Positions 18,301 to 61,339 of a stretch of DNA of 64,000 bases are shown in pieces. Each line of letters starts with the position of its first letter. Position 1 is the first letter of the stretch. Under the pieces are notes generated by a model, which was not told the DNA's origin, did not search any database, and worked only from the letters and a program-made list of their open reading frames with translations. The position numbers were made by a program, and so were the translations under genes. Source of the stretch: Verrucomicrobiales bacterium (lineage in GTDB: Bacteria > Verrucomicrobiota > Verrucomicrobiia > Verrucomicrobiales > DEV007); assembly GCA_965224685.1 (NCBI GenBank), contig CBDDAB010000016.1, positions 6,426-70,425 on the forward strand, written 5' to 3'.

Positions 18301-21144
18301 ACGAGACACACCACCCGGCCGGGAGATGGGTTCCCCAATCATGGTTTGAGTTGTCAAATCCCAAAGTCTGGCCACGCCCGGCAAGTAGGGACGTTCCGCG
18401 GTGCCGGTTAACAAACGTGTGCCGTCCGGGCTGATCGTGGCATCGTTCACGGGGCGTTCATGCGTTAGGATCCATTCTGCTTCACCGGTCTTGGTATGCC
18501 ACAGCTTCACCGTCTTGTCCGAAGACCAGGAAAGAAGACGATCGGCAGTGGGATAATCGCTTACGCCTTTGATCGTGCCATCGTGTTGCATCATGGGAGA
18601 CACCGGCCGCCCGCTCTCGATCTCAAACACACGCATGTAGCGGCCGTGCGCAAACAACAGATGCCGGCGATCGTCATCGAAGACGATGGAGCTGTATAGC
18701 GTATCCTGATCCGGTAAGCGGCACTCGGATACCATTTGACCACTATCAATATCCCATATCCTAGCAATACTCTCGCGCCAATACGAACAAGCAACGTAGC
18801 GGTTGTCCGGAGAAATCCGCACATCCTTCGCGTCGACGATCGGCTGCTGCTCCATCTTTCTAATAAGCTTGCCACTAGGCAAATCCCAAAGCATCACTTG
18901 GCCCAGGCCGGTGGACACGGCAATGGTCTTGCCATCCGGGCCGATGACAAAGTCTTCGTGATCGGAATCGAGTTTCAGTTCATGCAATAAGGTGCCGGTG
19001 GAGGAGTCGAATACGCGGAGATAAGGATCCCATAGATGGTCACTGCCGGGTCTCGCATTCCGGGAGAACAGAATCTTGCTGCCGTCTGGGGAATAGGCCA
19101 CGCGTCCATGGTGAGGGATGGTGTAAGCTGGAATGGCCCAATGATGTGACGCCAGGGTATCAAGCAAGCGCGTGGCAGCAGAGCTTTTGTCAGGACGCGT
19201 CCGCAACGCTCGGGCCAAGTGAGCCACGGCCAGTGACGGTTGATTCTCTTTGAGGAGCGAGGTCGCATGGGTGAAATCCGCCCGGCTAAACAACCGTCGA
19301 CCCCGAGCTTCGCTCTCTTCGGTTAAGCGCGCTTGTTTATCTGCCAGGAAGTAAAGAATGCTACTAACAATCGTGCCGGCAATAAGCACGCCGAGGCCCG
19401 CCAAAGCCGCTAGGGTAAACGCCTTATTCCTGCGGTAAAACTTACCGGTAACGTAGGTGAGACTGGGCGGTCTGGCTAAGACTGCTTCGTTTTCCAAATA
19501 ACGCTGCACGTCATCGGCGAACTCACTAACAGAGCCATAGCGTTGCGAAGGTTCTTTGCGCAATGCCTTCATCACAATCCAATCGAGATCGCCTCGCAAG
19601 TCCCCGGCCCGAATCGCGGTGGGCTCCGCTTGCTGACTAAGACGGTCACTGGGTTTGAGCGGATCACGCTCGCGGATCTGCTTGAGCACGTCGTCTAACG
19701 GAGTCGTATCGATTTCATCGCGGTCCACCGGAGTGGTTCCCGTGAGCAATTCGTAGAGGATGCAGCCTAACGAATAGATATCCGACCGCGTATCCGTGGC
19801 GCGGCGGTCGATGCAAGCCTGCTCCGGACTCATGTAATTCGGCGTGCCCAGGATCTGAGCCGCGCGCGTATGTAGTGGTTGATCTGTTAAAAAAGCCTCT
19901 GTCGCTTTGGCGATGCCGAAGTCGATCACCTTCACTTTGGCATTCGCCGGAGACGTATTTTCATCAACCGGCTCCACGAGAATATTGCTCGGTTTGAGAT
20001 CGCGATGAATGATTCCGCGCTGATGCGCGTGCTGGAGCCCCTCACCCACTTCTTTGAAAAGCACCAAACGTTCACGGCAGTCTAACTGATGCGCTTCACA
20101 GTACTCGGTGATGGGTAAGCCATCAGCGAGTTCCATGGCGAAAAATGGCCGGCCTTTCTCGGTCTCGCCCGCATCAAAAATAGTGGCAATGCGCGGATCA
20201 TCTAGCATCGCCAAAGCCTGTCTCTCGGCTTCAAATCGGGAAAACACCTCCCGGCCGTCCATTCCCGGTTTCAGGATCTTAAGTGCCACTTGACGTCTCA
20301 CCGGATGGGTTTGTTTGGCGAGGTAGACGATGCCAAATCCCCCCTCACCAAGTTTTCGAAGAATCTGGTAGCCTGGTACCACATCGTTGAGAGTGGCCAA
20401 GGTGGCCTCGTCAGTGGATGCTTTCTTTCGGGCACCTGCATCGTCTCGGGCTGAACCTGTGAGCAAGGTTTGGACTAACAAGCTCAAACTCGAATGCTCA
20501 CGGGAAACGGTGGACTTGGCCGCGGGCGCCTCTTCCTCCTCTCCTCTTGGCAGGCGATGCGCGCCGAGGTCTTGCAGTTTCGCAACATTCTGATGAGAGA
20601 TGACGATGCCTTCCGCTCGGACCTCGAGATTCACTCCGGAACTCTCCGCATACTCGACGATCTCACAGATATCCCGTACGTAACGAATCGCTTTGCTCGA
20701 ATCGATGGCATTCCGCTGAATCAGATCGGCCAAGCAGGCGCCCGGCACGGCTTCCATGGCCACATAAACGAATCCACCACGCTCCCCGTATTCTAGCATC
20801 GTGGCGATGTTTGAATGGCTAAGCTGGGAGGCGCGTTCTAACTGTGCGAGGATCTTGTCTAACGCGGAATCGAAAAGGCAAAGCGTGAGGAGAATGGCCT
20901 TGCCCTCGGCGTTTGCTTGATAAACAAGGCTTTCACTTTCCCGGCGGTCTAAATGATCGATCTCGTATTCGGGAAAGAGTTCCCGCACTTCATCAAGCGT
21001 GATGCCTTCTGCTAACCAGTCCTCTTGGGTTTCAATGTCGTCGGCCGGAGGCATCATGCCTCCGGCCAAGCAACTCGCACACCAGCCCTCCTCTCCGGTG
21101 GGGAGTTCGCGGTGACATTGGGGACACTTTGAGTTTTCTGCCAA
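15319..21144 (-). CDS. Giant receptor-like Ser/Thr protein kinase of 1941 aa. Domain order: zinc ribbon, degenerate kinase-like domain, active Hanks-type kinase, one TM helix, WD40 beta-propeller repeats, TPR/HEAT-like helical region, C-terminal galactose-binding-like jelly-roll.
   Basis: N-terminal CPQCHRELPTGEEGWCASC. A kinase-like domain at aa ~50-200 lacks a clear catalytic loop. The canonical kinase spans aa ~257-540 (GEGGFGIVY, VALK, HRDLKPSNIL, DFGIA, GTPNYMSPE). TM helix AFTLAALAGLGVLIAGTIVSSILYF. Many WD-like repeats follow. The C-terminus (NDSYW...LHLNGQEWW...VLAVSVHQ) resembles a GH2 N-terminal / galactose-binding-like domain. Confidence 0.85.
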   Translation of the reverse strand: MAENSKCPQCHRELPTGEEGWCASCLAGGMMPPADDIETQEDWLAEGITLDEVRELFPEYEIDHLDRRESESLVYQANAEGKAILLTLCLFDSALDKILAQLERASQLSHSNIATMLEYGERGGFVYVAMEAVPGACLADLIQRNAIDSSKAIRYVRDICEIVEYAESSGVNLEVRAEGIVISHQNVAKLQDLGAHRLPRGEEEEAPAAKSTVSREHSSLSLLVQTLLTGSARDDAGARKKASTDEATLATLNDVVPGYQILRKLGEGGFGIVYLAKQTHPVRRQVALKILKPGMDGREVFSRFEAERQALAMLDDPRIATIFDAGETEKGRPFFAMELADGLPITEYCEAHQLDCRERLVLFKEVGEGLQHAHQRGIIHRDLKPSNILVEPVDENTSPANAKVKVIDFGIAKATEAFLTDQPLHTRAAQILGTPNYMSPEQACIDRRATDTRSDIYSLGCILYELLTGTTPVDRDEIDTTPLDDVLKQIRERDPLKPSDRLSQQAEPTAIRAGDLRGDLDWIVMKALRKEPSQRYGSVSEFADDVQRYLENEAVLARPPSLTYVTGKFYRRNKAFTLAALAGLGVLIAGTIVSSILYFLADKQARLTEESEARGRRLFSRADFTHATSLLKENQPSLAVAHLARALRTRPDKSSAATRLLDTLASHHWAIPAYTIPHHGRVAYSPDGSKILFSRNARPGSDHLWDPYLRVFDSSTGTLLHELKLDSDHEDFVIGPDGKTIAVSTGLGQVMLWDLPSGKLIRKMEQQPIVDAKDVRISPDNRYVACSYWRESIARIWDIDSGQMVSECRLPDQDTLYSSIVFDDDRRHLLFAHGRYMRVFEIESGRPVSPMMQHDGTIKGVSDYPTADRLLSWSSDKTVKLWHTKTGEAEWILTHERPVNDATISPDGTRLLTGTAERPYLPGVARLWDLTTQTMIGEPISRPGGVSRVIFSADGTKCAVASAISELGDSAVLLLDAWTAEPLTSIYHPRGAQITAIHPSGNQLIISSRHDEAAVWEIKPRAQQPIHIRTKEILWRVNFDGDSDSVLTTAYGGLTQRWNSKTGEPLSDPEAYGPNKVAGLSGIPHSLRNGLHHHFYYEDRYLQSMLGRTYIEGEPVAAAVSDDGETLVTGCKDGALRVWSTMTGTQVRDPIDDLRAPVTALALDRRTTVVAVGYEDGSVELRDFETGQSRGLQAMHESEVSTLSWSPDDHTLASGSIDGMARLWRLTKQPSLSPLLPNEKKVTHLAFSANGKILASGGRSNAAFLWEVETGRQLGEPLRHIDSNSAGLMLSWVNSGKLVTTGSHDDTARVWDPRTSQMLTKPLKHGSMCYAFALRPDASACLMGSRSARVWDLEEGQPLTSFLPHGSDVRSAAFDSTGQRFVTGTWYDGAYVRDLVIPSDPLPNEFVDFAEALGGFRFTEAGVLEQVPAGLLEQSRRHILALEPDSPEIRWMQWLAADPDTRTNSPFSDLTITQYVSQLVKEGSRKSLHEALRHRPHDAGIMAAYAVALATPDHANVSSRQFGKFLAERARKMAPDDLEVQLAYATILAAMGEDRRALLALAPTLLARPEDPLCWHACAGFLEKVGWHVRAVAAYREASKLFGQDVEQSRACDEAINRIRSAYPANKQAIIDDALKTYPNKRSRFLSVLRALTSDNPREAMIEVAAGPRNWTMHGEVALLIAERIGEEGERALANRYRDAGVAALLCSNPLPERREMLSQWLGDDHEEALPLITSDADWAYLDGDPARRPPKDWEQPEFNDSYWSTGLAPLGYGNGNEATILSFGQSASNKPMMACFRINFDWPIHDSQSPPRLRVKFRCDDGMVLHLNGQEWWRYNMPARGSLTSTTPASSIIDREKETRLVEEVLEIPSPLSKKNVLAVSVHQSGRSSSDLALELALFHDTPLAQSLMGRTTVEEIATTLKLTTQERELMRVLLENEQH

Positions 21145-21153: not shown

Positions 21154-21984
21154 TTATCGGTCAAACAAGGCTCGCACATGAGCAAGTTCTTCGTCGAGAT
21201 CAGACGTCCCCCCTAGCGTTTGCATCACTTCATGGCGAAAAAGCTCTCCAAAGCGTTTGCGCAGACGATGAACCTGCATCTTGATGGCTGGTTGCGACGT
21301 ACCCATGACCTTGGCAGCCTCTCCATAGGATTGGGCACCCGGGTTCTGCTGAAGGAAAGGTGAAATCGTTTCAAAGAGCTTCTGCATATCACGCTTGGCG
21401 AACTCTTCCCGCAGACGCTCAATGACCCGCTCCATGAGCGAGAGGGCCCAACGCTTCTCAAAAAGCTCGTCCGGTGTGGTCTTCTCTGCCGGTTCCAAGC
21501 CGTACCAATGTTCGGCTTCGGCATGATTGATCGAAATGATCTGGCGTTTCCCGCCACGCTTCTCAGCCGACGCCCGGCGTCGCTTGTCCGCAACGAATCG
21601 GCGTAACAATGCTAGAAAATAGGAGCGAAGTTTGCCTTTGGTAGGATCCACTTCCGCGAGATGATCCTTTTCCACGAACCACGCGATGAAGTCTTGTGTG
21701 ATATCCTCCGCATCCTCCACGCCGAATCCGCTACGGCGCACGAACGCATAAATCGGTTTCCAGTAGGCGCCACACAAAGTCTCTAACGCTTCTGCCGGAT
21801 CCACCGGTTTCGCTTGGGCCGCTTCCCCGCCTTGCGCACTGATGACCAAACTCCAGCGCGTGCGCGGAAAACTGCTGGGCGTGGAAGTTGCAGGTTCTTC
21901 GGCCACGCCGGTGAGGTTAAGCTGCGTGGCCAGTCGGCTCAACGATTTCTGAGCTTGGGTGTTGGCTGGTAGGACGTCGTTCAC
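21154..21984 (-). CDS. ECF-like sigma-70 factor, of the Planctomycete/Verrucomicrobia-type kinase-associated group.
   Basis: Region 2-like DITQDFIAWFVEK and region 4 HTH (SYGEAAKVMGTSQPAIKMQVHRLRKRF). It ends 10 bp before the start of the giant kinase gene on the same strand. Confidence 0.75.
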   Translation of the reverse strand: MNDVLPANTQAQKSLSRLATQLNLTGVAEEPATSTPSSFPRTRWSLVISAQGGEAAQAKPVDPAEALETLCGAYWKPIYAFVRRSGFGVEDAEDITQDFIAWFVEKDHLAEVDPTKGKLRSYFLALLRRFVADKRRRASAEKRGGKRQIISINHAEAEHWYGLEPAEKTTPDELFEKRWALSLMERVIERLREEFAKRDMQKLFETISPFLQQNPGAQSYGEAAKVMGTSQPAIKMQVHRLRKRFGELFRHEVMQTLGGTSDLDEELAHVRALFDR

Positions 21985-22084: not shown

Positions 22085-25000
22085 TTACCGGGCCGCCTCC
22101 ATGGCTTCGAGGCGCTCGATGCGCATCGCCCGCACCCGGACGTAGCCTTCCTCTTCCGGCCGATTGATCTGGATCACCTCTGCGGCGTTCAGACCTGATT
22201 CGATAGTCTGCCACTCACGAAGGTTCTGCGAGAATTCCAAACGATAGAGCGTGTTGGCTTCCCCGCCGGTAAGGCGCAATCGCAGCGATTTCGATCCCGC
22301 ATTCAAGAATTCCAGCGCCAGCTCGCCTTCAGCAGGCGCGGGAATGGCTTCGTGCAAAGACTCCATTGGTGTCAATGCCAGTTGAATGCGATTGAAATCG
22401 ATGGAGCGGATCTGCGTGTCACAAGAGCAGTCGTCGTCACTGCTGATATCCGCGCCACCCGTGTCACCAATGATCTCCATTTGACTGACAAGCCCACCGG
22501 TAATCGACGGTGTGTGCACTTCGCCATCGCCACAGCCACCAATCTCAAATCCCGCCGCACGGCTCACAAAATCGACCGAGGATTCTGTCGACGTGAGGAT
22601 TCCCGCGATCTTCATCCCCGCCGGAGCGGTGTAGAGTTCGTTCACCCAAGTGCCGCGTGTCTCCGACCGATCTCCTCCCGTTTCTCTAGCATTGAAGTCG
22701 ATCACGGCATGGAGCCGGGTCTTGCCTTCATTCAGTTGCAAACGCACCGTCGACTGAATGCGAGGGCCGTTCCCACCGAAGTCGCGGTCGCCACGCACCA
22801 GTTCATTGAGACAAAGAACGCCAACCGACGGAGACAAATGCACGGTCCTCTGCGGACGCGACATGTCGTAGGCCCGGCGTTCACACTTTGCCCACATCTG
22901 ACAGAAATATTCTGCTCCGGAGAACAAACGATCATGTTCGGCCTGGGTCATCCCGGCACTCCGCATGCTTTCCACGTAGTCCGGCAAGAGACCATAGTGC
23001 GCAAAGCCTTCCTCATTGAAATCCCACGTCTTGGTTCCCGTGACGCACTTTGTAAGGTTAGAGCCATAACTGATACGCTCATCCCCGGGTGGTGGACCGG
23101 GAAGTGGATAAAGTCCGTTCACATCGGATCCAAAGGCCACTTGACGATTGCCCATGATTTCACTGGCCGCGCGAAATTGTTCCACGAACTGGCCGGCACC
23201 ATCGCCGTGCCCCACGCCAAAGACGCCTCCCAAGGCGCGGATATTGCGCAATTGATCCACCGTGCGGTCATTCTCCGTTCCATCATCACCACGCAATTGA
23301 TTGTGCCCCGAATTCAAAGGATAATCATTGCGGAAAGCGATGTTCATGGTGTCCGCGACCGCTTTCTCAGACATATGATCAATATCGACCATCATGCCGC
23401 GTTTCATCATATAATCCACCGCATAACGGCCACGATCCGTGAGCCCTAGTGAATTGCGATGACCACCACGGATGCCGGGATCGGCATAGAAGGGATAATT
23501 ATCCGGATTATTCGGCATCACGTGCCCGGGAATAACCGTGCCCGTGAAGTTCATGAGAAACGTTCCCACAAGGGGAAACTCCGCATAAGGAGAGAGCATC
23601 TTGTAAGTGATCCCCGTCGTGCGAGCATCCACGACCTCCGGCAGAAATGGGCTTCCCGTGTTATACTTGTTCGCCACATTAAACTCTGTTTGATAAATGG
23701 CCGCGCCGCCAAAGACGTTATTGGTCACATGAACGGGAAACATATAACGAACGCCCAAGTCGTAAAGACGATCAATCTCCGCGCGCATCTCGGCCTCCGA
23801 TGGAATGGGATTATAAACCCCGCCTTTCTTGTCCACTGGATCGTAGAAATTCCCGATATTATCCATCTCCGATCCAAGGATCACTGCTAGACGACCACTT
23901 CGCACAATGCGATCGAGATCATTCGAAGTGTAGGCGATTTCCATGAAATCGTGATGTCTGCCGATGAATTCTTTCAGTTTCTGAATCTGCAGATTCATGG
24001 AACGCAAGTCATCATTGTAACCGCTAGTCTCCGCGCCATCAGCAATGCAGTGATTGCTCACCGCAAGCGCGACCATCACTCTAAGACCACCATCTTTGGC
24101 ACGGCGAATCCATTCATACCACATCAATTGATGCAATACCGAATCGTGCCGCGGCCAAGAACGGAAATGGGGATAACCCGCTTCCTTCGTATGCGGATCC
24201 AAGTCATCGACCATCGCATTGCGAAAAGCGTTCATTTGATCACAGAAAGCTTCATCGACTGGCAGGACAAAGTTATGAATGCAATTACAAGAACCCAAGG
24301 CAATATGGGGATCGCCGTCGTTGCCGCCGTGAAATAATTCTTCTCCGAAGCCATATTGCGCAACGGGGTGCGTGTGCATATCGATCATTCCATAAAGCGG
24401 CTTACGTTCCACCGGCCCGTTATCGAAAGATCCCTCGTCGACCGACAGCACGTGAAACTTGACGCCTCGTGTCATGGCGGCGCGATCTTCATTCAAAATA
24501 CGCCATTCGCCTTGACTATACCAAACGCCCACATCGTGCCGATTGTAAAAACCGGCCCAATGCTGCGACACCAAGACCACGCGATCTGGATGGTTATTAG
24601 TAGAAGCATGATCAATCGCCGTCCAATTTCCAACCGGCGCAGCGGCTTCAACCAAAGTCGCACGGTCATCGAGGATGACATTGAATTTCGCGTTCTCCGG
24701 CATGGCGGCGAGATCTTGGTTGAAGATGCGCCATATCCCGTCACTTGAATAATAGATCCCTATCGGATGATCATTATAAACGCCCTCCCACCGTTGAGTG
24801 ATCAGAGGACGGGCATTGGGGTTCCCATTCAATTTCGGGTGATCCAATTGCGTGACATTTCGCGTGATGTTTTCAGCAGATGCCGTATGCACAAACGCCG
24901 ACTCGCTCGGCGGTACGACCAAGACATTCACATGGAGATTATCTGGGATCGCTGCGCGATCCTGATTAAAAAGCCGCCATTGCCCTTGGACATAATAAAC

Positions 25001-25234
25001 GCCCAAGGAACTGGGATTATAAGGGCCAAGCGTTCCGAAATCGGGTGTGATCATCACGATCTGATTCGGCTTTCCGTTCAGACTCTCGTGATCGATCACT
25101 GCGGTGTGGCCGCTAGGCGACTCCATAACATAGTTGAATGCCGTTTGCCCCATCAGAGGCACCGACATGACAAAGCACATCGCGGCGCCATAGAACAAAT
25201 GGCGTCGCCGTGCAGACAAAGGTTTCGTATTCAT
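22085..25234 (-). CDS. Secreted 1049-aa protein. It has an N-terminal signal peptide, three tandem ~75-aa repeats, a central M19 membrane-dipeptidase-like (amidohydrolase superfamily) domain and a C-terminal beta-rich region.
   Basis: Signal peptide LFYGAAMCFVMSVPLMGQTA. Three repeats share the pattern IDH..LNG.PN...L.TQ.W.G.YN.H.IG.YYS..G.WRIFNQD.AAMPE..FNV. The central segment (MIDMHTHP, LAVILGSEMD, VDIDHMSEKA, VAFGSDVNGLYPLP) resembles M19 dipeptidase metal-binding motifs (VGIGSDFDG-like). Confidence 0.4.
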   Translation of the reverse strand: MNTKPLSARRRHLFYGAAMCFVMSVPLMGQTAFNYVMESPSGHTAVIDHESLNGKPNQIVMITPDFGTLGPYNPSSLGVYYVQGQWRLFNQDRAAIPDNLHVNVLVVPPSESAFVHTASAENITRNVTQLDHPKLNGNPNARPLITQRWEGVYNDHPIGIYYSSDGIWRIFNQDLAAMPENAKFNVILDDRATLVEAAAPVGNWTAIDHASTNNHPDRVVLVSQHWAGFYNRHDVGVWYSQGEWRILNEDRAAMTRGVKFHVLSVDEGSFDNGPVERKPLYGMIDMHTHPVAQYGFGEELFHGGNDGDPHIALGSCNCIHNFVLPVDEAFCDQMNAFRNAMVDDLDPHTKEAGYPHFRSWPRHDSVLHQLMWYEWIRRAKDGGLRVMVALAVSNHCIADGAETSGYNDDLRSMNLQIQKLKEFIGRHHDFMEIAYTSNDLDRIVRSGRLAVILGSEMDNIGNFYDPVDKKGGVYNPIPSEAEMRAEIDRLYDLGVRYMFPVHVTNNVFGGAAIYQTEFNVANKYNTGSPFLPEVVDARTTGITYKMLSPYAEFPLVGTFLMNFTGTVIPGHVMPNNPDNYPFYADPGIRGGHRNSLGLTDRGRYAVDYMMKRGMMVDIDHMSEKAVADTMNIAFRNDYPLNSGHNQLRGDDGTENDRTVDQLRNIRALGGVFGVGHGDGAGQFVEQFRAASEIMGNRQVAFGSDVNGLYPLPGPPPGDERISYGSNLTKCVTGTKTWDFNEEGFAHYGLLPDYVESMRSAGMTQAEHDRLFSGAEYFCQMWAKCERRAYDMSRPQRTVHLSPSVGVLCLNELVRGDRDFGGNGPRIQSTVRLQLNEGKTRLHAVIDFNARETGGDRSETRGTWVNELYTAPAGMKIAGILTSTESSVDFVSRAAGFEIGGCGDGEVHTPSITGGLVSQMEIIGDTGGADISSDDDCSCDTQIRSIDFNRIQLALTPMESLHEAIPAPAEGELALEFLNAGSKSLRLRLTGGEANTLYRLEFSQNLREWQTIESGLNAAEVIQINRPEEEGYVRVRAMRIERLEAMEAAR

Positions 25235-25531: not shown

Positions 25532-25855
25532 ATGATAACGATTGCGAGATTCCAAGCCCCTGAGGAGGCGCATTTGTTTAGCGGGTACCTTGAGGCGAAC
25601 GAGATTCCGGCTCACGTATTCGATGAACATACAGTGCAGGTTGCATGGTATTTCAGCAACGCCATCGGCGGCGTGAGAGTTGTCGTAGATGAAGGAAATG
25701 CTGAAGAGGCCAAACATTTGTCCCAAGATTACTTTGAATGTTTATTGGCGGAGCCGAGAATAATCACGGTAGCCAGAGCATGGCCGCTAGTTTTCTTGCT
25801 TTCACTTATTGTGGGGATTCCGACACTCCTCTTCGGCAGACGGACTGCGCAATGA
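25532..25855 (+). CDS. DUF2007-like small protein with a C-terminal TM helix.
   Basis: The N-terminus MITIARFQAPEEAHLFSGYLEANEIPAHVFDEH matches the DUF2007 (putative signal-transducing) pattern. C-terminal hydrophobic helix WPLVFLLSLIVGIPTLLF. Confidence 0.5.
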   Translation: MITIARFQAPEEAHLFSGYLEANEIPAHVFDEHTVQVAWYFSNAIGGVRVVVDEGNAEEAKHLSQDYFECLLAEPRIITVARAWPLVFLLSLIVGIPTLLFGRRTAQ

Positions 25856-25935: not shown

Positions 25936-28900
25936 TTACGCCGAATCATCCGTTTTCTGTTTCACCTTTGAGTCAACGGCGACGGGAAGTTCCTGAGTGG
26001 GTTCAGGGGCGTCTTTACCTGCATGAACCGGAACAACTTTGATTTCCACATCAACGGGCACGGAGCGAAGTCCGGCGATGATCTTCTCCAACTGGGAGAC
26101 GGTGTCATCGGCCAGGGTTGCCGGTTGCGAACGGTCCTTGGCCGCTTCGGCGATCGTTTTCTCGATTTGATTGATACCAGTGGTGAAGGCGGAGAGTTGG
26201 CCAACGATCCGGGATACGGGATCGTTGTCTCCAGCGCCGCCAACTAGCAGATTGCGTTGGAAAGTCTCCTTGATGTCTGCCCAGCGGGCGGTTTCTTCTT
26301 CGGTGAGTGCCTCCTCCATTTCTTTGAACTTGAGGAGATTCGCTTCAGCACCGGTAGTGAGAGTTTGGGCTTCGTTCTCGTAGTGATCATGAATGACTCC
26401 TATCACTTCCTCATCAGTCATGATGGGAAGGATCTTTTCTGCAATGCGGTTCATATTGCGGTAGGAACCTTGCAGCTTGAACGGAGGTTCCGTTCGGTAT
26501 TCGTCCGCTTGGGCTGCGGAGCGAATGTATTCGAGATTCACACGGAGAATGGTATCCCGTACGCGGAATAGTTTTTTCATCACCGCAACGAGTTCGGTGA
26601 CTTCTTCGGCACTGTAATTACCCTCGAATTCGGCGCCGTCTCGTCCACCTGTGGTCGCGATCTGCATGATGGCGTAAACGTCTTTCTGACTCTTTGCAGC
26701 AAGCGTATTGAGTACGGCATTACTGGTTAGGCAGTTCTCAATATAGGAGTCTTTAAACGCGTCCGCATGCCCCCCGATGATGTCACCAAGGTTGTACGTG
26801 TCTGCGCGGTTGGCGAGCATGTCCGGAATCTGGAATTTGCCGCCTTGTTCGGTGTAGGGATTGCCCGCCATGACCACCGCCACTTTACGACCTCGAAGAT
26901 CGTAGGTTCTGGCCTTGCCGTTGAAGACACCCTCCATGCGACGTTGGCCGTCACACAATGAAATAAACTTCTGCAAGAACTCCGGGTGACAATGTTGGAT
27001 ATCATCGAGATAAATCATCACGTTATCCCCCATCTCCAACGCGAGATTGAGCTTGTTCACCTCTTCGCGTGCACTGGCGTTCGGAGCTTCGTTGGGATCA
27101 AGCGACGTGACCGTATGACCAATGGCCGGGCCGTTGATCTTCATAAACGTCAATCCTAAACGATCCGCCACGTATTCCATGAGCGTGGTTTTCCCGTAAC
27201 CCGGAGGTGAGATGAGTAATAGCAGCCCCATGCGATCGGCACGCGTCTCTTCTCCGGCAACGCCGATCTGTTTGGCGAGATTATCGCCGATGAGAGGAAG
27301 ATAGACGCGGTCAAGGAGCCGGTTACGCACAAACGAACTCATGACCCGAGGCTTGAATTCATCGAGTCGCATCTTCTCTCGCTGATTTTTCGCTAAGGCA
27401 GCTTTGCCGTGGGTGTAACGTTCATACACTGGAACGACATTCTGACAAAACGCCTGCAAGCGGTTCATGAATCGATTGTAGTGTAAGCTGTATAGTCCTT
27501 CATCAACAACCGAATGGGAACCAAGCATCCCTTTGATATCGCATGAGATAGCCACTTTTCCGGTAGCAGAGACATCGCTACCGCGAAGCAAATGCACGCT
27601 AGCTTCGTTGAGATAGGGATGCCCCGAAGAAAAACCGCTTAGCCAATCGCGAATGACTTCAAAACGATCTAACGGATGTTTCTCCAGTTTCTTTATGATC
27701 TCTTGAAAGCGCGCTTGTTGACGCTTGCCGGTAAGATGCGTTTGAAACTCTTTTATCAACTGAGCCGCTTCCGGGCTCGCGGTGACGTGTTTGGCATTGG
27801 CCAACTCATAAAGAAGATACTCCGCGGCTTGAAGATTGGCGCCGTTCTCAATCACGGGTGGCATCTCGGCCAGCCGTTGATGGAGCACTTCAATATAGTG
27901 CTTTTGTTCATCGCGATCTGGAAACAATTCTTGGACGGCACCGAAGGAAAGCAGCTGATGCTCGAGCACTTTCTTGTCGTCATCCTCCACCCAGGACTCC
28001 CAAAGCAATAGGCCTTTCGCTCTAGCATCCGCGTCATAGCGCAATAAACCGATCGACTCGCGGATGCGGTAAAGTTCCTTTAGTAGTAAGAGCGCATCGT
28101 GATCATGGACACCTTTGGTATAGCCTTCTGCATAGCGAGGCGCCATGAATTGGCGGAGATCATCTTCGTTCTCCGATCGGGACTCATTGGTGAGAAAGAA
28201 TCGGTAGGCTAAATACTCGGAACGATAGATATCGCTGTTCTCAGAGATCAGTTCCTGTTCCCAAACGGACTCCGTCTCAAGAAAATCAGGATCGCTGATC
28301 GCCTCAAAATACCGCGTGCCCGTTAAGTGATAGCACATGGTGTCTTCATGGGGAACGATGGTGAGTTCCAAGTCTTGTTGATTGACGGAAAAGCGGTGAT
28401 TGCCGAATTGGATAATGTTTTGTCCATCAACATAGAGCTCGCGACGGTCTTTAAGTTGACGGACAGCTTCTTCCCGCAAGGTCTTGAGTTGCGTCTGAAT
28501 GCCATCTGCTTTGACTGGATCGTCAAGCTCCTGCAACTGGACGACAATATCCCGCACCTTCTCGATCATCAAATCAGAGGCGAGATAAGCATTGATCTCT
28601 GAGATCTCTTCAAATCCCGCGAGGCGTTTCTGCACACCCTGAAGAATGCGCTCGGCGGATTTTTGAAGGTTATTGGCTCGCTTGTTTCGCGACTCGACTA
28701 AGCTTACTTTTCGCGATTCGAAAGCGTCATAAACTTCGGTGCGTTTATCCGAGAGCTCGGAAACAAAGTCGTCAAACTCCGCATACTTGCTTTCGAGTTC
28801 CTCCAATTGCACCATCACCTTAGTGAGGCTCTCCTCGCATTTCGCGGGTTCATCACAGAGATCGAGGTAATTAACCACGGCTTGATTAAGCAGTTTGATC

Positions 28901-30972
28901 TCGGCGTGAAATTGCGCACTGCCTTCCGCTTTGCCCAACTGAAGGACGCGGTTTTTTAACTCGACTTTGACTTGATTAAGAATCGAATAGAGGTCGGAAA
29001 TACTTTCGATGATCTGCGTGGTCTGCGTCGCATCTTCTATCTTCAAGTTGCCAACGATTTCGATCAATAGCTCAAGCTCGTGACCGGCTTCATTGAGCTG
29101 CTCACCGACTTCTTTTCCCTCCGCGACCTTCGCCACTTTGGCGACCGCAGCTTTCTGTTCCTCGATCGCTTGGCTATATGGGTCTAAGGCTTCCGGTTTA
29201 AGGAGAAAAGCGACACATCGTTGGGAAAGGCGTTCGGTGACCTCTTGAATCTCGGCTTCCAGGGCATCGACGGCTTTGGTATCGGCATATCGCAGGTCTC
29301 TTATAGATATGGTTTCGCCGCGGACAGTGCGTAGTTCAGACAGATGATGAACGAAGCCCATGATGTCATCTGGAGCACTGTGCTCCGCTTGGCTCATGAG
29401 CCTGCGTGCCCTGGTCGTCACGTCCTCAGATTCGCTCGCGGCGGTTTGACGAAGTCGAAGGACTTTATCGAATTCGTCAATAGCCGATTGAGCAGCCGTT
29501 TGTAGCGCTGTTAACGGTTCCTTAAGACGATGGGCCTCGGCATGATCAATCCAGAAATAGCTATTGGCAATATCGGCCGTGCGTTTCGCTAAATCGACGT
29601 AGAGATCCGCATAGGTATCATCTTTATGAAGCAAATTGAGCACTTCATGACACTCCGCCATGCAGCGCACGATTTCCGCATTGCCGAGTTTATAAAGATA
29701 ATGATCGCTCTTCGCGGTGGCAAGTTGGATATCGGGATCGTGATAGGGCGTTTGCCAAACCTGCAGGACGTGATGCTTTTGTGGTTGATCTTCGGTGCGG
29801 AAATAAACGAGTTCACCATTCGGAAAGACACTATATCCGTGGCAAGAAATGGGCGTATCGACCTGACGACCGATCACATTATAGGACATAAGGATATAGT
29901 CCCCCGACGCGCGATTGTAGAAAATATAAAAGTAATCCTCACCGTTCGGTGCCGCAATTCGTCGTTCGAAAAGCATCTTGGAGAGACCGCTCTCGAAAAG
30001 TTTGGTCTCACCGCTTTGTAGATGAAACCCGTTTGAAAAGATCACGCCGTGATCGTCCGGCAGGAGAACGCACGAGTCCTCAATCGAATCCACACGGGTC
30101 ACCGATTGCAGCTTCTCGTTGTAAATGAAATACCGAAAAGCGTCTTCCTGGTAAGGGCGAATTTTAACGAGAATGAGATTGCCAATAAGGGCATAGAAGA
30201 TCTCGGCGTCGTCTAAGGTCTGATCAACTTCCTCGACGGGTTCAGCATAAATGCCCTCACCGGATTCGGTGTTATCCTCAATCTTGATCGTCAGATCGCC
30301 ACCGACGGTTTCGACAAACAAGCGGTCCTCAATGGAAACGTGAGGATGGTCGCCACTTCGTTGCATATCGCGGTGGGCGCGCGTCCATTCAAACTCCTGT
30401 TGTTCAGGAAATTGATATTCGTGATCAAAACGATTTCCTAGATACTCCAGTTGGCCGTTTCCGTGAAGTAGCCATTTGAAAGTCTTGATATCAGTCACAT
30501 CACGCCCCGTGCGAAAAGCCATATAGAGATGTGGTCCAATCAGGAGAAACTTCGCAAATACCGTTTGTTTGTAATACTTGTAGAGATGCCCAAAGTCGTA
30601 GAGGAAATTGTCGTCACGAAGAATCTCTTCGACCGGCAGGGCGCTGAAACGATGGCTTTCTGCATCGTACTGATAGGTGGCAAAGACATCCGCTGGGGCC
30701 GTCGTGGACTTGAGGCCGATATGCACATTGAAGCCAAAGAGAAAACGTCCGCCACCAATGGCCACCATATCCCGGGGAATACAGTTGTTAGGGGTCGTGA
30801 CACGCTCCGTGGCGACAAGCTCCGGTTCCACGGCGCCGAACACCTCTTGGCGTTCGGCGTTGAGTTTGGTTAGCCGGGTCCGGAGATCTTCGCCATGGCT
30901 CGAGAGCCGCTGGCGAATGATCTCATACGTGCCTCCATCCAGGGTATCCGGCGTTGCTGAGTCCTCTGGCAT
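25936..30972 (-). CDS. Giant 1678-aa protein. It has an N-terminal beta-rich region, a central long coiled-coil/helical region and a MoxR/AAA_5-like AAA+ ATPase module at aa ~1230-1420. It is translationally coupled to the upstream flotillin gene.
   Basis: Walker A ISPPGYGKTTLMEY at aa ~1257 (nt ~27185-27200). Walker B VMIYLDDIQH at aa ~1320. A sensor-like VVMAGNP. Heptad-rich E/K/L segments occupy the middle third. The start ATG (30970-30972) is separated from the flotillin stop (30974-30976) by one nucleotide. Confidence 0.6.
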   Translation of the reverse strand: MPEDSATPDTLDGGTYEIIRQRLSSHGEDLRTRLTKLNAERQEVFGAVEPELVATERVTTPNNCIPRDMVAIGGGRFLFGFNVHIGLKSTTAPADVFATYQYDAESHRFSALPVEEILRDDNFLYDFGHLYKYYKQTVFAKFLLIGPHLYMAFRTGRDVTDIKTFKWLLHGNGQLEYLGNRFDHEYQFPEQQEFEWTRAHRDMQRSGDHPHVSIEDRLFVETVGGDLTIKIEDNTESGEGIYAEPVEEVDQTLDDAEIFYALIGNLILVKIRPYQEDAFRYFIYNEKLQSVTRVDSIEDSCVLLPDDHGVIFSNGFHLQSGETKLFESGLSKMLFERRIAAPNGEDYFYIFYNRASGDYILMSYNVIGRQVDTPISCHGYSVFPNGELVYFRTEDQPQKHHVLQVWQTPYHDPDIQLATAKSDHYLYKLGNAEIVRCMAECHEVLNLLHKDDTYADLYVDLAKRTADIANSYFWIDHAEAHRLKEPLTALQTAAQSAIDEFDKVLRLRQTAASESEDVTTRARRLMSQAEHSAPDDIMGFVHHLSELRTVRGETISIRDLRYADTKAVDALEAEIQEVTERLSQRCVAFLLKPEALDPYSQAIEEQKAAVAKVAKVAEGKEVGEQLNEAGHELELLIEIVGNLKIEDATQTTQIIESISDLYSILNQVKVELKNRVLQLGKAEGSAQFHAEIKLLNQAVVNYLDLCDEPAKCEESLTKVMVQLEELESKYAEFDDFVSELSDKRTEVYDAFESRKVSLVESRNKRANNLQKSAERILQGVQKRLAGFEEISEINAYLASDLMIEKVRDIVVQLQELDDPVKADGIQTQLKTLREEAVRQLKDRRELYVDGQNIIQFGNHRFSVNQQDLELTIVPHEDTMCYHLTGTRYFEAISDPDFLETESVWEQELISENSDIYRSEYLAYRFFLTNESRSENEDDLRQFMAPRYAEGYTKGVHDHDALLLLKELYRIRESIGLLRYDADARAKGLLLWESWVEDDDKKVLEHQLLSFGAVQELFPDRDEQKHYIEVLHQRLAEMPPVIENGANLQAAEYLLYELANAKHVTASPEAAQLIKEFQTHLTGKRQQARFQEIIKKLEKHPLDRFEVIRDWLSGFSSGHPYLNEASVHLLRGSDVSATGKVAISCDIKGMLGSHSVVDEGLYSLHYNRFMNRLQAFCQNVVPVYERYTHGKAALAKNQREKMRLDEFKPRVMSSFVRNRLLDRVYLPLIGDNLAKQIGVAGEETRADRMGLLLLISPPGYGKTTLMEYVADRLGLTFMKINGPAIGHTVTSLDPNEAPNASAREEVNKLNLALEMGDNVMIYLDDIQHCHPEFLQKFISLCDGQRRMEGVFNGKARTYDLRGRKVAVVMAGNPYTEQGGKFQIPDMLANRADTYNLGDIIGGHADAFKDSYIENCLTSNAVLNTLAAKSQKDVYAIMQIATTGGRDGAEFEGNYSAEEVTELVAVMKKLFRVRDTILRVNLEYIRSAAQADEYRTEPPFKLQGSYRNMNRIAEKILPIMTDEEVIGVIHDHYENEAQTLTTGAEANLLKFKEMEEALTEEETARWADIKETFQRNLLVGGAGDNDPVSRIVGQLSAFTTGINQIEKTIAEAAKDRSQPATLADDTVSQLEKIIAGLRSVPVDVEIKVVPVHAGKDAPEPTQELPVAVDSKVKQKTDDSA

Positions 30973-30973
30973 C

Positions 30974-33028
30974 TTAACCAGCCAATGACTTCATCACCTT
31001 GTTCGCTTTCTGATCGGCCAAGCCCAGGCGCTTGGCCGCCCCCAAGAGACTTTGCAGCTTCCCTTCAGTGGCTTGATCATCCGTGGTGGCGATCATTTGC
31101 CCTAGCAGACCGGCGATACTGAGATTCTTCAGATCTTCGGATGTGATGCCGAACTGATCTATCCATGTGGAGAGTTGCGATCTGAAGTAATTGGGATCGC
31201 CATTAAAGAAAGTTTCCTTAACGTCTGTTAGAGCACGGCTATTCTCAAGGGCGCGGTCAACGGATTTGCCGGTGGTGATCGCGCCGGCGATTTTATCAAA
31301 GAAGGCGGTTTCGCCGCCGATGATATCGACTCGAGCGTTCTCCAGCGCTGTGGAAACGACTTCCGAATGGCGTGAGGCGATCTCCTTCTGCGCCGTGATA
31401 TCGGCCAGTTCGACCACTTTCTGTTTCTCAAGCTGCAAGCGGAACTCCTCGTGATCTTTGCCTTCGCCATCGAACTGCTTCATGGCATCGGCTTTCTCGG
31501 TGATTCCCTTGGCTTCTGCGAGGGCCTTCAGTTCGGTGACCTTCGCTTCAGCGGCACCTTGTTTCTGCGTGGCAATGGCGGTCGCTTCAAGCACTTGCAC
31601 TTCACCCAAACCAGGTGCAGCGGTTTCGGCGGCGGTGGCATCAGCCAAGGTCTTCTTCGCTTCGGCAGTCTTGAGGGCGGCGGCTTGTTCGGCCTCGGCG
31701 GCTATGAGGATTTCCTCCGCATGCAATTCGGCCGATTCCTTCTGCGCTTCGGCAGCCTTGACGGTTTGATAGAGTTCTTCATCGGCTTTCAACTGAGCCG
31801 CTTCTTTGGCCGCTTCGGCTTCCTTGATCTTCTTCACCAGTGACTCTTGGGCCTCCATTTCTGCTAGAGTGACCTTCACTTGCTTCTCACGATCGGCACC
31901 GGCGAAGGCCTCAGTGTCTTTGATCTTTTCTTGTTCAATGACAACCGTTTTCTCGACGGCGACACGTTCTTTGATCACGTCTTGAATATTCTTCTTCTCC
32001 ACCTCTACGGCTTTGTCGCGCTCGATGCCCTTCAGGGCGGTAACGCGGTCGCGCTCGATGACCTCTAACATCCGGTCACGTTCCACGCGTTCGCCTTCCA
32101 CGGCATCGGTCCGCTCTTTATTCCGCTGGGCCACGATCACTTGACGGTTCTTATTCTCTTCGGCGATCTGCACCTCTTCTTCGGTGGCGATTCTTGCGCG
32201 TTCGGATTTCAGACGCTCCTCTTCGCGCACTTTCTCTGCTTCAGCATGTTCGCGGGCCTGAACGGATTCTACTTCGCGTTTCTGTTTCGCCTCGGTTTCA
32301 GCGAGCTGTCGGTTGAGTTCGAGGATCGCTTCTTCTGCTTCGACATCTTGTTGGCGAATAACACGTTCTTTATCGCGTTCGATCTGGTTGGCGAGCTTGC
32401 GTTGTTCCGCGGTGAGATCGGTGATCTTTTTAATACCCTCGGCATCGAGAATATTGTCAGGATTAAGCATTTCTAAGGAGGTCTGCTCCAAGTGATCAAT
32501 GGCGCAATCATCGAGGACGAATCCGTTCAGATCCGTGCCGATAATCTTGAGGATTTCTTCGCGGAAGGTGTCGCGTTCTTCATAGAGTTCGGCGAAATCG
32601 AAACGTTTGCCGACTGTCTTCAGAGCTTCCGAGAATTTCGCATCAAAGAGATCTTGAATCTCCTTCTGGCTGGAGGCGCGATCACATCCCACGGCCGCGG
32701 CGACGCGTTTGACGTCTTGTTCTTCGTTATTAACCCTGACAAAGAACACAACTTTAATGTCAGCGCGGAGATTATCTTTACAGATTAGACCTTCTTTGGC
32801 CATGCGTTGGATCTCGATGCGTTTCACGGAGATATCCATGATCTCCGAGCGATGAAGAACGGGGATGACGAGCATCCCGGAGAAGGAGACGCGCGTGCCG
32901 CCTTTGCCGTTCCGAACCAAGGCCTGACCTTGCTCGACCTTGCGATAGCATTTGATGATGAGGACGGCCAGACCCAAGCCAATGATGATGGCGGCCGCGA
33001 TAAGGAAGTAGAGGAGTGCTTGTGGCAT
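30974..33028 (-). CDS. yqiK: Flotillin-like SPFH/band-7 domain protein (YqiK-like) with a long EA-rich coiled coil.
   Basis: N-terminal TM (LYFLIAAAIIIGLGLAVLII). SPFH domain (GQALVRNGKGG...VIPVLHRSEIMDISVKRIEI...). ~350 aa of E/A/K-rich coiled coil and a flotillin-type C-terminal region. Confidence 0.85.
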   Translation of the reverse strand: MPQALLYFLIAAAIIIGLGLAVLIIKCYRKVEQGQALVRNGKGGTRVSFSGMLVIPVLHRSEIMDISVKRIEIQRMAKEGLICKDNLRADIKVVFFVRVNNEEQDVKRVAAAVGCDRASSQKEIQDLFDAKFSEALKTVGKRFDFAELYEERDTFREEILKIIGTDLNGFVLDDCAIDHLEQTSLEMLNPDNILDAEGIKKITDLTAEQRKLANQIERDKERVIRQQDVEAEEAILELNRQLAETEAKQKREVESVQAREHAEAEKVREEERLKSERARIATEEEVQIAEENKNRQVIVAQRNKERTDAVEGERVERDRMLEVIERDRVTALKGIERDKAVEVEKKNIQDVIKERVAVEKTVVIEQEKIKDTEAFAGADREKQVKVTLAEMEAQESLVKKIKEAEAAKEAAQLKADEELYQTVKAAEAQKESAELHAEEILIAAEAEQAAALKTAEAKKTLADATAAETAAPGLGEVQVLEATAIATQKQGAAEAKVTELKALAEAKGITEKADAMKQFDGEGKDHEEFRLQLEKQKVVELADITAQKEIASRHSEVVSTALENARVDIIGGETAFFDKIAGAITTGKSVDRALENSRALTDVKETFFNGDPNYFRSQLSTWIDQFGITSEDLKNLSIAGLLGQMIATTDDQATEGKLQSLLGAAKRLGLADQKANKVMKSLAG

Positions 33029-33049
33029 AATGGTGTGGTTAAATCGGGT

Positions 33050-33766
33050 TTATTCTGATGCTGTTATGAGTGAGGAATCGAGTTTGCGAACGAGGTAAGT
33101 TTGAGGTGATTCGTGTAGATCGACGACTAAAGCCTGATCGCCTTTGGATAGGGGCGGCTGCCCATCAGAGATCCTCACATTGATGAGAATCGGAGCACCT
33201 TGATCATCCTCAGCCTCGGCCTGGCCGAACTCGGTCGTGACCTCGCTGGTCTTGATCACGCAGGTGCGGCCAACGACCGGGCGGTGCTTTTCACCGGCCT
33301 TCAAGGAGCGCATCATGGGCTTAAGAGGCGCTGTGAGGAATTTGGTTAGGAAAAGACCGCCGATAAAACTCAGGCAGAGAAATCCGAAGGCGACGCCCAA
33401 TGACTGGCCTGGATTGTAGTAGTAATTGAGCAGAAGACAGGCCGCCCACATCAAGGTGATGAGAACCGAAACGAGGACCATGAGGGGAATCTCTCCGAGA
33501 TTGAAGAACCGGAACAGTCCAAGGCTGCCCGCATCGTGAGAATGATGCGCATGCGCGTCAGCATCGAGATCGGCGTCGGCATCCATATCAACATCCACAT
33601 CGGCGTCGACATCGATATCGGGTTCCAAGCTATCCGTGTCCACAGCTCCAAATATCGTCAGAATCCAGAATAGCAGGACTAATCCAAAGAGTACGGTAAG
33701 AGGAAAGTTATAAATCCTCAGTGCTTCCTGCAACAATTCGCTCATGGGTGCCAAGACAGTTTCCAA
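33050..33766 (-). CDS. yqiJ: NfeD-like membrane protein (YqiJ-like partner of flotillin).
   Basis: TM helices. An acidic/His-rich loop (DIDVDADVDVDMDADADLDADAHAHHSHD) as in YqiJ. A C-terminal soluble OB-like domain. It ends 21 bp upstream of the flotillin gene on the same strand. Confidence 0.7.
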   Translation of the reverse strand: METVLAPMSELLQEALRIYNFPLTVLFGLVLLFWILTIFGAVDTDSLEPDIDVDADVDVDMDADADLDADAHAHHSHDAGSLGLFRFFNLGEIPLMVLVSVLITLMWAACLLLNYYYNPGQSLGVAFGFLCLSFIGGLFLTKFLTAPLKPMMRSLKAGEKHRPVVGRTCVIKTSEVTTEFGQAEAEDDQGAPILINVRISDGQPPLSKGDQALVVDLHESPQTYLVRKLDSSLITASE

Positions 33767-33872
33767 TGGTGGCCACGTTATCGGTCACCGATGGCTTAGC
33801 GATTATAATGCCTTGAAGGCTTTGTAAAGAATGTGAAGCAGATTAACTGTTCGCGATCGTATCTAGACAAAT

Positions 33873-34595
33873 GTGAGAAAGGGCGGTTGCGACAAGGAGT
33901 TTTCCCGACAAACGATCTGGAGCCAACCAACTCCGATACCCTCGGGGCCGACACCTCCGCCCGCAGCGCCCCCATCATTGTTGCCGGCAGCGAAAACGTC
34001 GCGAGCTGCCATTCTCTCATTACTACTGGGCGTGCCCGCGCTCTTTATCGGCTTGCCACTTGGCATTCTCGCGCTTCTGCTAGGCTTTATCGCGCTGGCT
34101 CGGATCCGCGGTTCGAAAGGCCTCAAGAAGGGAAAAGGTTTGGCCATCGCCGGCATGGCTTTGGGCGCTATTGGATTGGCCATTTCGGCTTATCTGATCG
34201 TTCTCACCACCAAACACGGAATCGCTAATCAATCGGCCCTATCCAAAGCAGAAAGTCATATCATCTCCAGTAGAGAGGGTGTGTTCTACGGAAACACGGC
34301 GGAGGCCAAGATCGCCGCCAAGCGTTTTTCCGAGACCATGAAAACCCTGCGCGAATCCTTCTTTGAGGCGAGTGATGAGGAACGCTTCCTCACGAAAGAT
34401 GAGTTCGTGACACACTGTGAGATTCACGATGACACCTGGGGGCGTTCTTGGTTCACGTGCCGCAATGGCGCCGGTTTACGAAAGATGCGAAGGATTCGCT
34501 CTGCGATCTTGGTTGGTCCACGGCGCAACGCATCATTGAAGAGAGCGGCAGCTCTCCGACCCGGTTGGCGTCAAGGGCGTCTTGCTCTATCATAA
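33873..34595 (+). CDS. Hypothetical membrane protein with a DUF4190-like two-helix segment. The 3' region may be degenerate.
   Basis: Pro-rich N-terminus then LLGVPALFIGLPLGILALLLGFIALARI...AIAGMALGAIGLAISAYLIVL. All three + frames stay open over 34.4-34.75 kb, suggesting decay or a frameshift. Divergent from yqiJ. Confidence 0.3.
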   Translation: MRKGGCDKEFSRQTIWSQPTPIPSGPTPPPAAPPSLLPAAKTSRAAILSLLLGVPALFIGLPLGILALLLGFIALARIRGSKGLKKGKGLAIAGMALGAIGLAISAYLIVLTTKHGIANQSALSKAESHIISSREGVFYGNTAEAKIAAKRFSETMKTLRESFFEASDEERFLTKDEFVTHCEIHDDTWGRSWFTCRNGAGLRKMRRIRSAILVGPRRNASLKRAAALRPGWRQGRLALS

Positions 34596-50125: not shown

Positions 50126-50683
50126 GTATTTTACTCGAACCATGCTTGACCTAGGCCACGTTGCTCCGCATGGACGATTCGTGCACGTATTCCTTAATGG
50201 AAAGTATTGGGGTCAATATCATCTCCGTGAGAAATGGAACGGGGCGATGTTTTCTTCCTATTTCGGCCATGACGAGGATGACTACGAAGCTATTGATGGA
50301 GATAATCAGGGCGCCGATTTTGGTGATGGCACAATGTTTCAAGGCTCTGGGAAATATTGGCAGCAAGCGCTTGCTATCGCAAAAAACTCAAAAACACCAT
50401 GGCATGATTTACAACCCCTGATTGACCTTCCCAATTACCTCGACTTCCTTCTGCTTTGGTCCACAGGATGTGCAGAACCGGAATTCCAAGCGGTAGGCGC
50501 CCCGGAATTAGGGATTGGCTTTAGGTTTCATCTTAAAGACGCTGATGGTTTTCTGCGTCGCCCTCTACATCGATTAAAGAGCCGCGGGCCAGGTGGTTTA
50601 TTTCACGCATTAAAGCAAGAGAACCACCCCAAGTTCAATGCACTACTACGTGATCGCATCAAGCAGCTCTACCAAGAACCCGG

Positions 50684-52086: not shown

Positions 52087-52474
52087 AGAACCCGGATCAG
52101 TTAAGCCTATACTAAATATTGAGCGGTTCTCTGCTATCGTTTCGCAGTCAAAGTTATCAATTACTGCGGAGTGTGTTCGTTGGAAGTTTCGTTCCAGTCA
52201 ATCTTGGCTACGATACAATAGGTACATTCTTGAACACTATCTTACCGTAACTCCATTCTTACCGTGAGAGAAACAAAATTCGGGTACAGACTACAGACCA
52301 TCTTTGAAATTGTATCACTAAGGCATGTACTGGTTCACTGGTTCAGCGAAAAACGGGGTTTTGTGATCTGAGTTTAAGAGACTCTTGTGGGCTCTCTAGG
52401 TTCTGGCCGCTTGCACGCCGATTTACAAATTGCCGAGCGTTAGTCCTCGCGCAGTAAGAGGTATCCACTTACTG

Positions 52475-61333: not shown

Positions 61334-61339
61334 ATTTGG

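Follow-up and report, generated by a model that had tools for sequence, protein, structure and literature searches.

The function of bacterial flotillins is unclear, and their deletion mutants often show little phenotype (PMC13086221, PMC2636767). SPFH proteins assemble into cages attached to the membrane and partner with AAA+ machines (PMC11260169, PMC12048511, PMC13220708). The closest described system is an operon defined in silico by Ravi et al. (2024, mSystems; PMC11237479), in which a CesT/Tir-PspA dyad stands together with a flotillin, a YqiJ/YuaF protein with three transmembrane (TM) helices and an AAA+ protein with an N-terminal propeller and a coiled coil. In the part of that paper that presents the operon, it is read as a sub-membrane remodelling, PspA-associated membrane-stress module, and abbreviated operons lacking PspA are described as widely distributed. 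In this study, we analyzed a stretch of 64,000 nucleotides (nt) from a Verrucomicrobiales bacterium (contig CBDDAB010000016.1, assembly GCA_965224685.1), referred to below as the window. It carries a yqiJ/NfeD-like gene, a flotillin gene and the gene of a giant AAA+ ATPase in direct succession.

This trio fits the published operon, as presented in the part of the paper devoted to it, in its flotillin, its three-TM YqiJ/YuaF protein and its propeller/coiled-coil AAA+ protein. The CesT/Tir-PspA dyad that adjoins the published operon was not encountered at the window locus within its 64 kb. The locus is the 'abbreviated' form of the PspA-associated operon, in the sense given to that form there. 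The original prediction had set the flotillin-coupled ATPase outside the canonical two-gene module. This implied novelty does not hold, since the operon type, including its PspA-less form, already appears in that paper. We conclude that the trio is a real and strongly conserved module of a type already published in silico. New here are the Pfam identity of the ATPase, a dedicated flotillin subfamily, an invariance of motifs that includes an Asp-Asp Walker B, and the recognition that the database name of the ATPase is unsupported. The published account of the operon is purely computational; in the sections concerned with it, the ATPase bears no Pfam identity (DUF3686/DUF7902), and neither a one-to-one dedicated flotillin subfamily nor motif invariance is described. 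The supplement text of the paper mentions neither DUF3686 nor a propeller.

As originally predicted, three intact genes lie head to tail on the minus strand of the window. They are the yqiJ-like gene (33050-33745), the flotillin gene (30974-33028; 684 amino acids (aa), ATG start) and the gene of the giant soluble ATPase (25936-30972; 1678 aa plus stop, ATG start). The yqiJ-like stop codon TAA (33052-33050) is followed after 21 nt by the flotillin ATG at 33028, and a single nucleotide (g, 30973) separates the flotillin TAA (30976-30974) from the ATG of the giant gene (30972-30970); both of these predicted spacings are seen in the sequence. The yqiJ-like open reading frame (ORF) spans 33050-33766 and encodes 238 aa from a TTG. 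Alignment with 11 homologues instead supports the ATG at 33745 (Met8 of that ORF) as the start, giving a protein of 231 aa.

Adjacency of the three genes was assessed in a scan of one genome per GTDB species, in which at least 594 genomes contained a relative. For the best 80 of these loci, ORFs were searched with hidden Markov models (HMMs) derived from the window and from four cross-phylum homologues. These 80 closest loci come from Verrucomicrobiota, Planctomycetota, Kiritimatiellota, Omnitrophota, Desulfobacterota, Bacteroidota and Clostridia. A flotillin gene lies directly upstream on the same strand in 61 of the 64 closest loci with more than 2.3 kb of upstream DNA, and a YqiJ-like gene is also upstream in 54 of the 60 with more than 3.2 kb. 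All 13 giant-bearing records of the plasmid database contain the trio (six were inspected gene by gene, seven come from a flotillin tblastn search). The carriers are plasmids or chromids of Hymenobacter, P. fluorescens SBW25 (pQBR103), Streptomyces, Nonomuraea, Deinococcus, Proteus mirabilis, Halomonas, Photobacterium and Vibrio campbellii, and the records span Bacteroidota, Pseudomonadota, Actinomycetota and Deinococcota. The trio is likewise present in all five of the most distant family members that were checked (29-33% identity in the propeller). In total it is conserved in at least ten bacterial phyla, and its flanking genes vary between loci. The recurrence of giant homologues beside yqiJ-yqiK pairs, raised as a question by the original prediction, is thus answered by these counts: the homologues do adjoin SPFH/NfeD genes, and they are not a well-characterised family with an unrelated function. 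The three genes form one conserved unit, and their adjacency is beyond chance.

The spacing and surroundings of the trio differ from locus to locus. The flotillin-giant gap ranges from -11 to 2360 nt in related loci, and the 1-nt spacing is a local feature of the window. ORFs inserted in this gap elsewhere are heterogeneous and were ruled out as components of the system; only a small PDDEXK_3-like ORF recurs, in five loci (L001, with similar small ORFs in the same gap of L008, L011, L024 and L056). In L001 (14938-19092), from Oceaniferula spumae AP026866, the trio adjoins Multi_ubiq/Prok-E2/Prok-JAB/ThiF/BubE genes and a large deaminase gene. In two distant loci, a TelA (toxic anion resistance) gene lies directly 3' of the giant gene in the one and no more than 3 kb away in the other (L091, 11001-12221; L094, 13176-14303), and TelA may be a further stress-related neighbour of the trio.

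The yqiK-like identity assigned to the flotillin was borne out by BLASTP (30% identity to E. coli K-12 YqiK over 470 aa, E 1e-43) and by hhalign (probability 99.95%). The protein consists of an N-terminal membrane anchor (aa 1-31, its single hydrophobic segment), a divergent SPFH domain, a Glu/Ala-rich coiled coil and a subfamily-specific C-terminal part. Neither Pfam Band_7 nor any other Pfam or NCBIfam model matches it, and it is therefore a divergent member of the YqiK/FloT type. Band_7 matches only 2 of 13 members of the giant-linked subfamily. The last 234 aa have no significant similarity to the YqiK C-terminus in BLASTP, and the C-terminal region has invariant positions across 13 members from several phyla. 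Judged from these alignments, the window flotillin is a separate subfamily and not a YqiK orthologue. A PDB sequence search with the flotillin alone gave no match, and the sole match of its profile to the PDB was a weak one to QmcA (8z5g).

The link between this subfamily and the giant protein is sharpest in the plasmid database. A tblastn search with the window flotillin against 72,556 plasmid records matched 317 of them. The 13 best matches (33-54% identity, 71-95% coverage) are exactly the 13 giant-bearing records. The other 304 reach at most 31% identity and align only over about aa 26-398, that is, about the N-terminal 54%. They are mostly E. coli/Shigella conjugative plasmids, and none is among the plasmid matches of the giant protein. 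In this database, the giant-linked flotillin subfamily is one-to-one with the giant.

The small protein encoded first was predicted to be YqiJ-like, and its family profile matches E. coli YqiJ over the full length (hhalign probability 95.8%, E 6.7e-9, 175 aligned columns). The Pfam YqiJ_N match is weak (E 6.7e-4, 20.3 bits, below the cutoff of 23). Hydropathy predicts three TM helices; the protein also has a loop of acidic D-x-D repeats and, at its C-terminus, a beta-rich (OB-like) domain. The profile matches the nuclear magnetic resonance structure of YuaF (2k14) weakly (E 0.59), and the C-terminal region is beta-rich by alignment only. The acidic repeat loop, DIDVDADVDVDMDADADLDADAHAHHSHD, occupies aa 42-70 (33536-33622) between TM1 and TM2. 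Similar D-x-D runs are found in most of the cross-phylum homologues aligned, and a stretch rich in Asp and His occupies the corresponding position of E. coli YqiJ. The loop may bind cations.

The giant protein was originally described as having an ATPase as its only recognisable module, which proved too narrow. Pfam also recognises DUF3686 (PF12458) at aa 29-473 (E 2.4e-183, with positions 1-448 of the 448 in the model aligned) and DUF7902 (PF25472) at aa 594-675 (E 1.2e-26), in addition to AAA (PF00004) and AAA_5 at aa 1251-1376. Complete members of the DUF3686-AAA+ family have 1550-2036 aa, and the giant fits this family in PF12458, DUF7902, C-terminal AAA+ and size. At least 4477 homologues were found at E<=1e-10. 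Homologues of 1640-1800 aa from Verrucomicrobiales, Akkermansiaceae and Rubritalea align over 97-100% of the length at 57-68% identity, and these alignments indicate that the ORF is neither a chance ORF nor split by frameshifts. Hydropathy revealed no TM segment in the protein.

AlphaFold2 models of the giant (predicted local distance difference test score, pLDDT, 77-78) show five parts, all encoded on the minus strand. An N-terminal helix and beta-propeller (aa 13-407, propeller aa 51-407; 29752-30936) are followed by a long-helix bundle or coiled-coil region that includes DUF7902 (aa 425-846; 28435-29700), with helices of up to 58 residues over about 420 residues. A small beta domain (aa ~853-891) and a helical domain (aa ~917-1130) come next (27373-28416), then an AAA+ module with its lid, delimited by translation, conservation and structural neighbours (aa ~1205-1560; 26293-27360). 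The C-terminal tail (aa 1561-1678; 25939-26292) is helical and then of low confidence, and is less conserved. The N-terminal part, for which the original prediction could name no module and proposed HMM searches and structure prediction, thus holds a DUF3686 beta-propeller, long helices and DUF7902. Foldseek matches the N-terminal model only to generic WD40-like propellers (Elp1, Sec12, DCAF1, clathrin terminal domain) at E ~1e-5. A membrane-coat-like reading of the giant was rejected, because the clathrin heavy chain (propeller plus helical linker) matches only at a TM-score of 0.13-0.2. The best conserved stretch of the N-terminal propeller region is aa 203-254 (30211-30366), with a mean column identity of 0.75 over 86 sequences and an AlphaFold2 pLDDT below 50; this loop is a candidate partner-binding site. 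The least conserved part of the protein is aa 1001-1200.

The AAA+ module has a Walker A motif, GYGKT (27187-27201), and a Walker B motif, IYLDDIQH (26992-27015). All 86 full-length homologues share K1261, T1262, D1323, D1324, N1371, R1344 and R1389 without exception, 83 of them also have R1505, and the mean column identity in the AAA+ core is 80-88%. The invariance of Walker A, Walker B, sensor-1 and the arginines suggests that the giant is likely an active motor. Structural neighbours of the module in Foldseek are AAA+ proteins only, with RuvB as the top match (E 5e-4) and CbbQ and NorQ among the top matches. A PDB sequence search with the giant returned generic AAA+ P-loop regions only. The ATPase near the C-terminus had been predicted to be of MoxR/AAA_5 type: AAA_5 does score above its cutoff, PF00004 slightly better, but the MoxR type is unproven, as other AAA+ clades match equally.

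Taken together, these features make it fairly probable that the trio is a conserved operon for a membrane-associated, ATP-driven machine in which the AAA+ motor remodels a flotillin/NfeD scaffold or its clients. Much less confidence attaches to any particular substrate of the giant than to this general picture. The flotillin has one N-terminal TM segment, the YqiJ-like protein three and the giant none. The flotillin and the YqiJ-like protein, the latter with its three TM helices and a cytoplasmic OB-like domain, would assemble, in the manner of solved SPFH/NfeD complexes (PMC11260169; QmcA-YbbJ, PDB 8z5g), into an SPFH scaffold or cage at the inner membrane, on its cytoplasmic face. The soluble giant probably oligomerises into a ring via its AAA+ module. 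Through its beta-propeller and long helical region it could dock on the flotillin-specific C-terminal part or on clients held by the scaffold; the loop at aa 203-254 and the subfamily-specific tail of the flotillin are candidate docking sites. It would spend ATP to assemble, disassemble or remodel the scaffold, PspA-type polymers encoded elsewhere, or client proteins.

Envelope stress is the proposed setting of this action. PspA lies upstream of the trio in 17 of 60 loci, mostly in Bacteroidota, and 16 of these 17 also have CesT/Tir. The full form of the operon that Ravi et al. present, CesT/Tir-PspA-YqiJ-flotillin-giant, is thereby recovered in 16-17 loci. On pQBR103, a PspA/yjf-type stress cluster is located upstream of the trio.

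A more specific form of the remodelling machine is proposed only tentatively. The trio might be a self-contained, horizontally mobile machine, in which a dedicated flotillin paralogue, distinct from ordinary YqiK, forms a cage on the cytoplasmic face that is assembled or dismantled by a megadalton-scale giant AAA+ ring with propellers. If this is true, it would be the first case of an SPFH scaffold served by a non-proteolytic ATP motor of its own. The giant would act on flotillin cages as Vps4 does on ESCRT-III or NSF on SNAREs, and the trio would offer a direct experimental handle on the role of bacterial flotillins.

Several points weigh against the picture of a remodelling machine. No PspA or CesT gene was found in the 64-kb window. 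Three of the 64 loci with ample upstream DNA (L037, L048, L058) have no adjacent flotillin; each has 7-9 kb of upstream DNA, and neither a flotillin nor a YqiJ gene adjoins the giant gene. An adjacent flotillin is also missing in L025, L047 and L083, but little upstream DNA is present there. The identities of the giant and the flotillin to their window counterparts covary (r = 0.80, 72 loci), a point in favour of linkage that is partly attributable to shared phylogeny. RuvB, dynein, midasin and Hsp100 match the AAA+ module equally well, and no single clade (MoxR, dynein, Hsp100/RuvB) is favoured. The interaction surfaces put forward for the giant are guesses from conservation alone. The acidic pair of Walker B is Asp-Asp instead of the usual Asp-Glu in 86 of 86 homologues, which may mean slow, switch-like hydrolysis and not a processive remodeller. 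DnaA-type switch ATPases have the same Asp-Asp pair, and this is a lead only. No published experimental work on any member of the trio was found in the literature on DUF3686/PF12458, on DUF7902 or on flotillin with DNA repair ATPase.

It is also conceivable, though on balance unlikely, that the machine serves quality control. The cage would then corral membrane or membrane-proximal clients, and the giant would be an unfoldase or extractase acting on these clients and not on the scaffold, a protease-less analogue of HflK/C-FtsH, prohibitin-m-AAA, SLP2-YME1L or erlin-p97. However, Pfam detects no protease domain in any of the three proteins, and protease genes are not conserved next to the trio. 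Read by eye, the segment following the second strand, INGPAIGHTVTSL, lacks the aromatic-hydrophobic-Gly pore-loop motif typical of threading AAA+ proteins, and the DD Walker B counts against this role as well. The dedicated C-terminal part of the flotillin fits the scaffold itself as the partner better.

Much of the genomic distribution described above could also be expected of a conflict or anti-phage system, a mobile defence module whose AAA+ protein would detect infection and whose membrane proteins would carry out abortive infection. The trio occurs on plasmids and megaplasmids in several phyla, its unusually high cross-phylum identity (40-54%) suggests horizontal transfer, and its flanking genes are variable. 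In Oceaniferula it stands beside ubiquitin-like conjugation (Multi_ubiq/E2/JAB/ThiF/BubE) and deaminase genes, and small PDDEXK_3 ORFs are inserted in five loci. On the other hand, none of the three proteins matches a PADLOC-DB 2.0 model at E<=0.01, and a search of 50,697 phage records gave no homologue. On these two results, less weight was given to the defence and phage readings, and we regard such a function as very improbable. Moreover, Pfam finds no nuclease, TIR, protease or other effector domain in the three proteins, the genes around the trio in the window (PriA, fatty-acid hydroxylase, dipeptidase) are housekeeping or unrelated genes, and the recurrent neighbours are envelope-stress genes (PspA, CesT/Tir, yjf cluster) and not defence genes. 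The trio is also kept across many Verrucomicrobial genera.

That the giant serves as a RuvB- or SMC-like ATPase in DNA repair or recombination, with flotillin adjacency reflecting membrane-tethered DNA processing, is scarcely credible: the label of PF12458 ('ATPase involved in DNA repair'), the NCBI/Pfam name 'DNA repair ATPase', RuvB as the top Foldseek match and a partial RuvB_N match at aa 1235-1286 speak for it, but RuvB_N scores 22.9 bits where 27 are required, the RuvB models of NCBIfam reach 22.5 and 19.8 bits against cutoffs of 282 and 299, the RuvB models align to the P-loop region only, and no DNA-binding domain was detected in the giant and no repair genes are linked. The name 'DNA repair ATPase' for this family is unsupported and misleading.

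The preferred reading, a remodelling machine encoded as one operon, concerns a unit that is bounded in the window by a convergent DUF2007 gene (25532-25855) and a divergent DUF4190 gene (33873-34595). The DUF2007 gene, which the original prediction took as the 3' boundary, is real (Pfam 27.6 bits against a cutoff of 25.7). The predicted divergent intergenic region upstream of yqiJ exists, but its extent is not 33767-33872. With the yqiJ-like start moved to the ATG at 33745, it is therefore 33746-33872. Direct reading of this region shows a promoter-like TTTACA-15 nt-TATAAT on the minus strand (33828-33802), which resembles the consensus and no more. A promoter and terminator scan gave no more sites than expected from shuffled sequence, and no terminator downstream of the giant gene. 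The consensus promoter scanner requires a spacer of 16-18 nt and did not list the 15-nt element.

Other features were observed in the window. A 1941-aa Ser/Thr protein kinase fused to several WD40 propellers is encoded at 15319-21144 on the minus strand, with an extracytoplasmic function (ECF)-sigma-like gene (21154-21984) directly before it. A 1049-aa protein (22085-25234) has three DUF7452 repeats and an M19 membrane-dipeptidase domain. Four ORFs form a transposase cluster at 48818-55699: two of the Mutator type (48818-50143, minus; 50763-52022, plus), one DDE_Tnp_1 (52857-54152, minus) and one ISL3 (54485-55699, minus). Guanine-cytosine (GC) content is slightly reduced across this cluster. 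An RHS-repeat ORF (61340-63988, minus) lies in the region 60680-63988, and 12 nt separate its start from the end of the window. The ORF after it, of 217 aa and without a Pfam match, is in the lowest-GC stretch of the window (0.44). Together, the two ORFs may represent the tip of a polymorphic toxin and the matching immunity gene.

A flotillin subfamily whose gene nearly always accompanies that of a large, highly conserved ATPase is a more tractable entry point to flotillin function. The giant ATPase lends itself to trapping, to mutation (K1261; D1323/D1324) and to use as bait, and the carriers of the trio include culturable bacteria: Proteus mirabilis, Vibrio campbellii, P. fluorescens SBW25 with pQBR103, Hymenobacter, Streptomyces and Deinococcus. 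Because Band_7 finds so few of the partner flotillins and some records are annotated as 'hypothetical', the module is hidden from automated surveys.

Among known AAA+ proteins, the MoxR group (CbbQ, NorQ, RavA) resembles the giant in that AAA_5 matches it above the cutoff and CbbQ and NorQ are among its top structural matches. MoxR proteins have about 300-500 aa. Unlike the partner arrangement of MoxR proteins, neither the giant nor the ORFs scanned on either side of the operon in the window showed a VWA domain. The first two genes have closer counterparts. In E. coli yqiJ-yqiK and B. subtilis yuaF-floT, where a short NfeD (DUF1449) protein partners an SPFH2-type flotillin, the order is the same as in the window, a small TM/OB protein and then the flotillin, with tight spacing. 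E. coli YqiK is homologous to the N-terminal ~465 aa of the flotillin in the window, and E. coli YqiJ to the YqiJ-like protein over its entire length. However, E. coli yqiJK has no third gene, and yqiK is followed by sibD/ibsD and hldE. The window flotillin has 684 aa, whereas YqiK has 553 aa and lacks a counterpart of the last 234 aa; its subfamily is at most 31% identical to the plasmid-borne YqiK-like flotillins.

For the coupling of scaffold and motor, the nearest analogues lie elsewhere. In HflK/C-FtsH, and by extension in prohibitin-m-AAA, SLP2-YME1L and erlin-p97, an SPFH scaffold is coupled to a ring AAA+ at the membrane, as the trio is genetically (PMC12048511, PMC13220708). In contrast to FtsH, the giant has no TM segment and no protease or peptidase domain, and in their place has a propeller and ~800 aa of helical domains. 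The orientation of YqiK and QmcA suggests by analogy that a flotillin cage of the trio would face the cytoplasm and not the periplasm. ESCRT-III/PspA with Vps4-type AAA+ proteins is likewise a system of helical polymers on a membrane that is linked in operons to AAA+ proteins, and PspA stands beside the trio, mostly in Bacteroidota and on pQBR103. The ESCRT-III/Vps4-type analogy for the PspA-linked AAA+ operon is drawn in the part of PMC11237479 that presents it.

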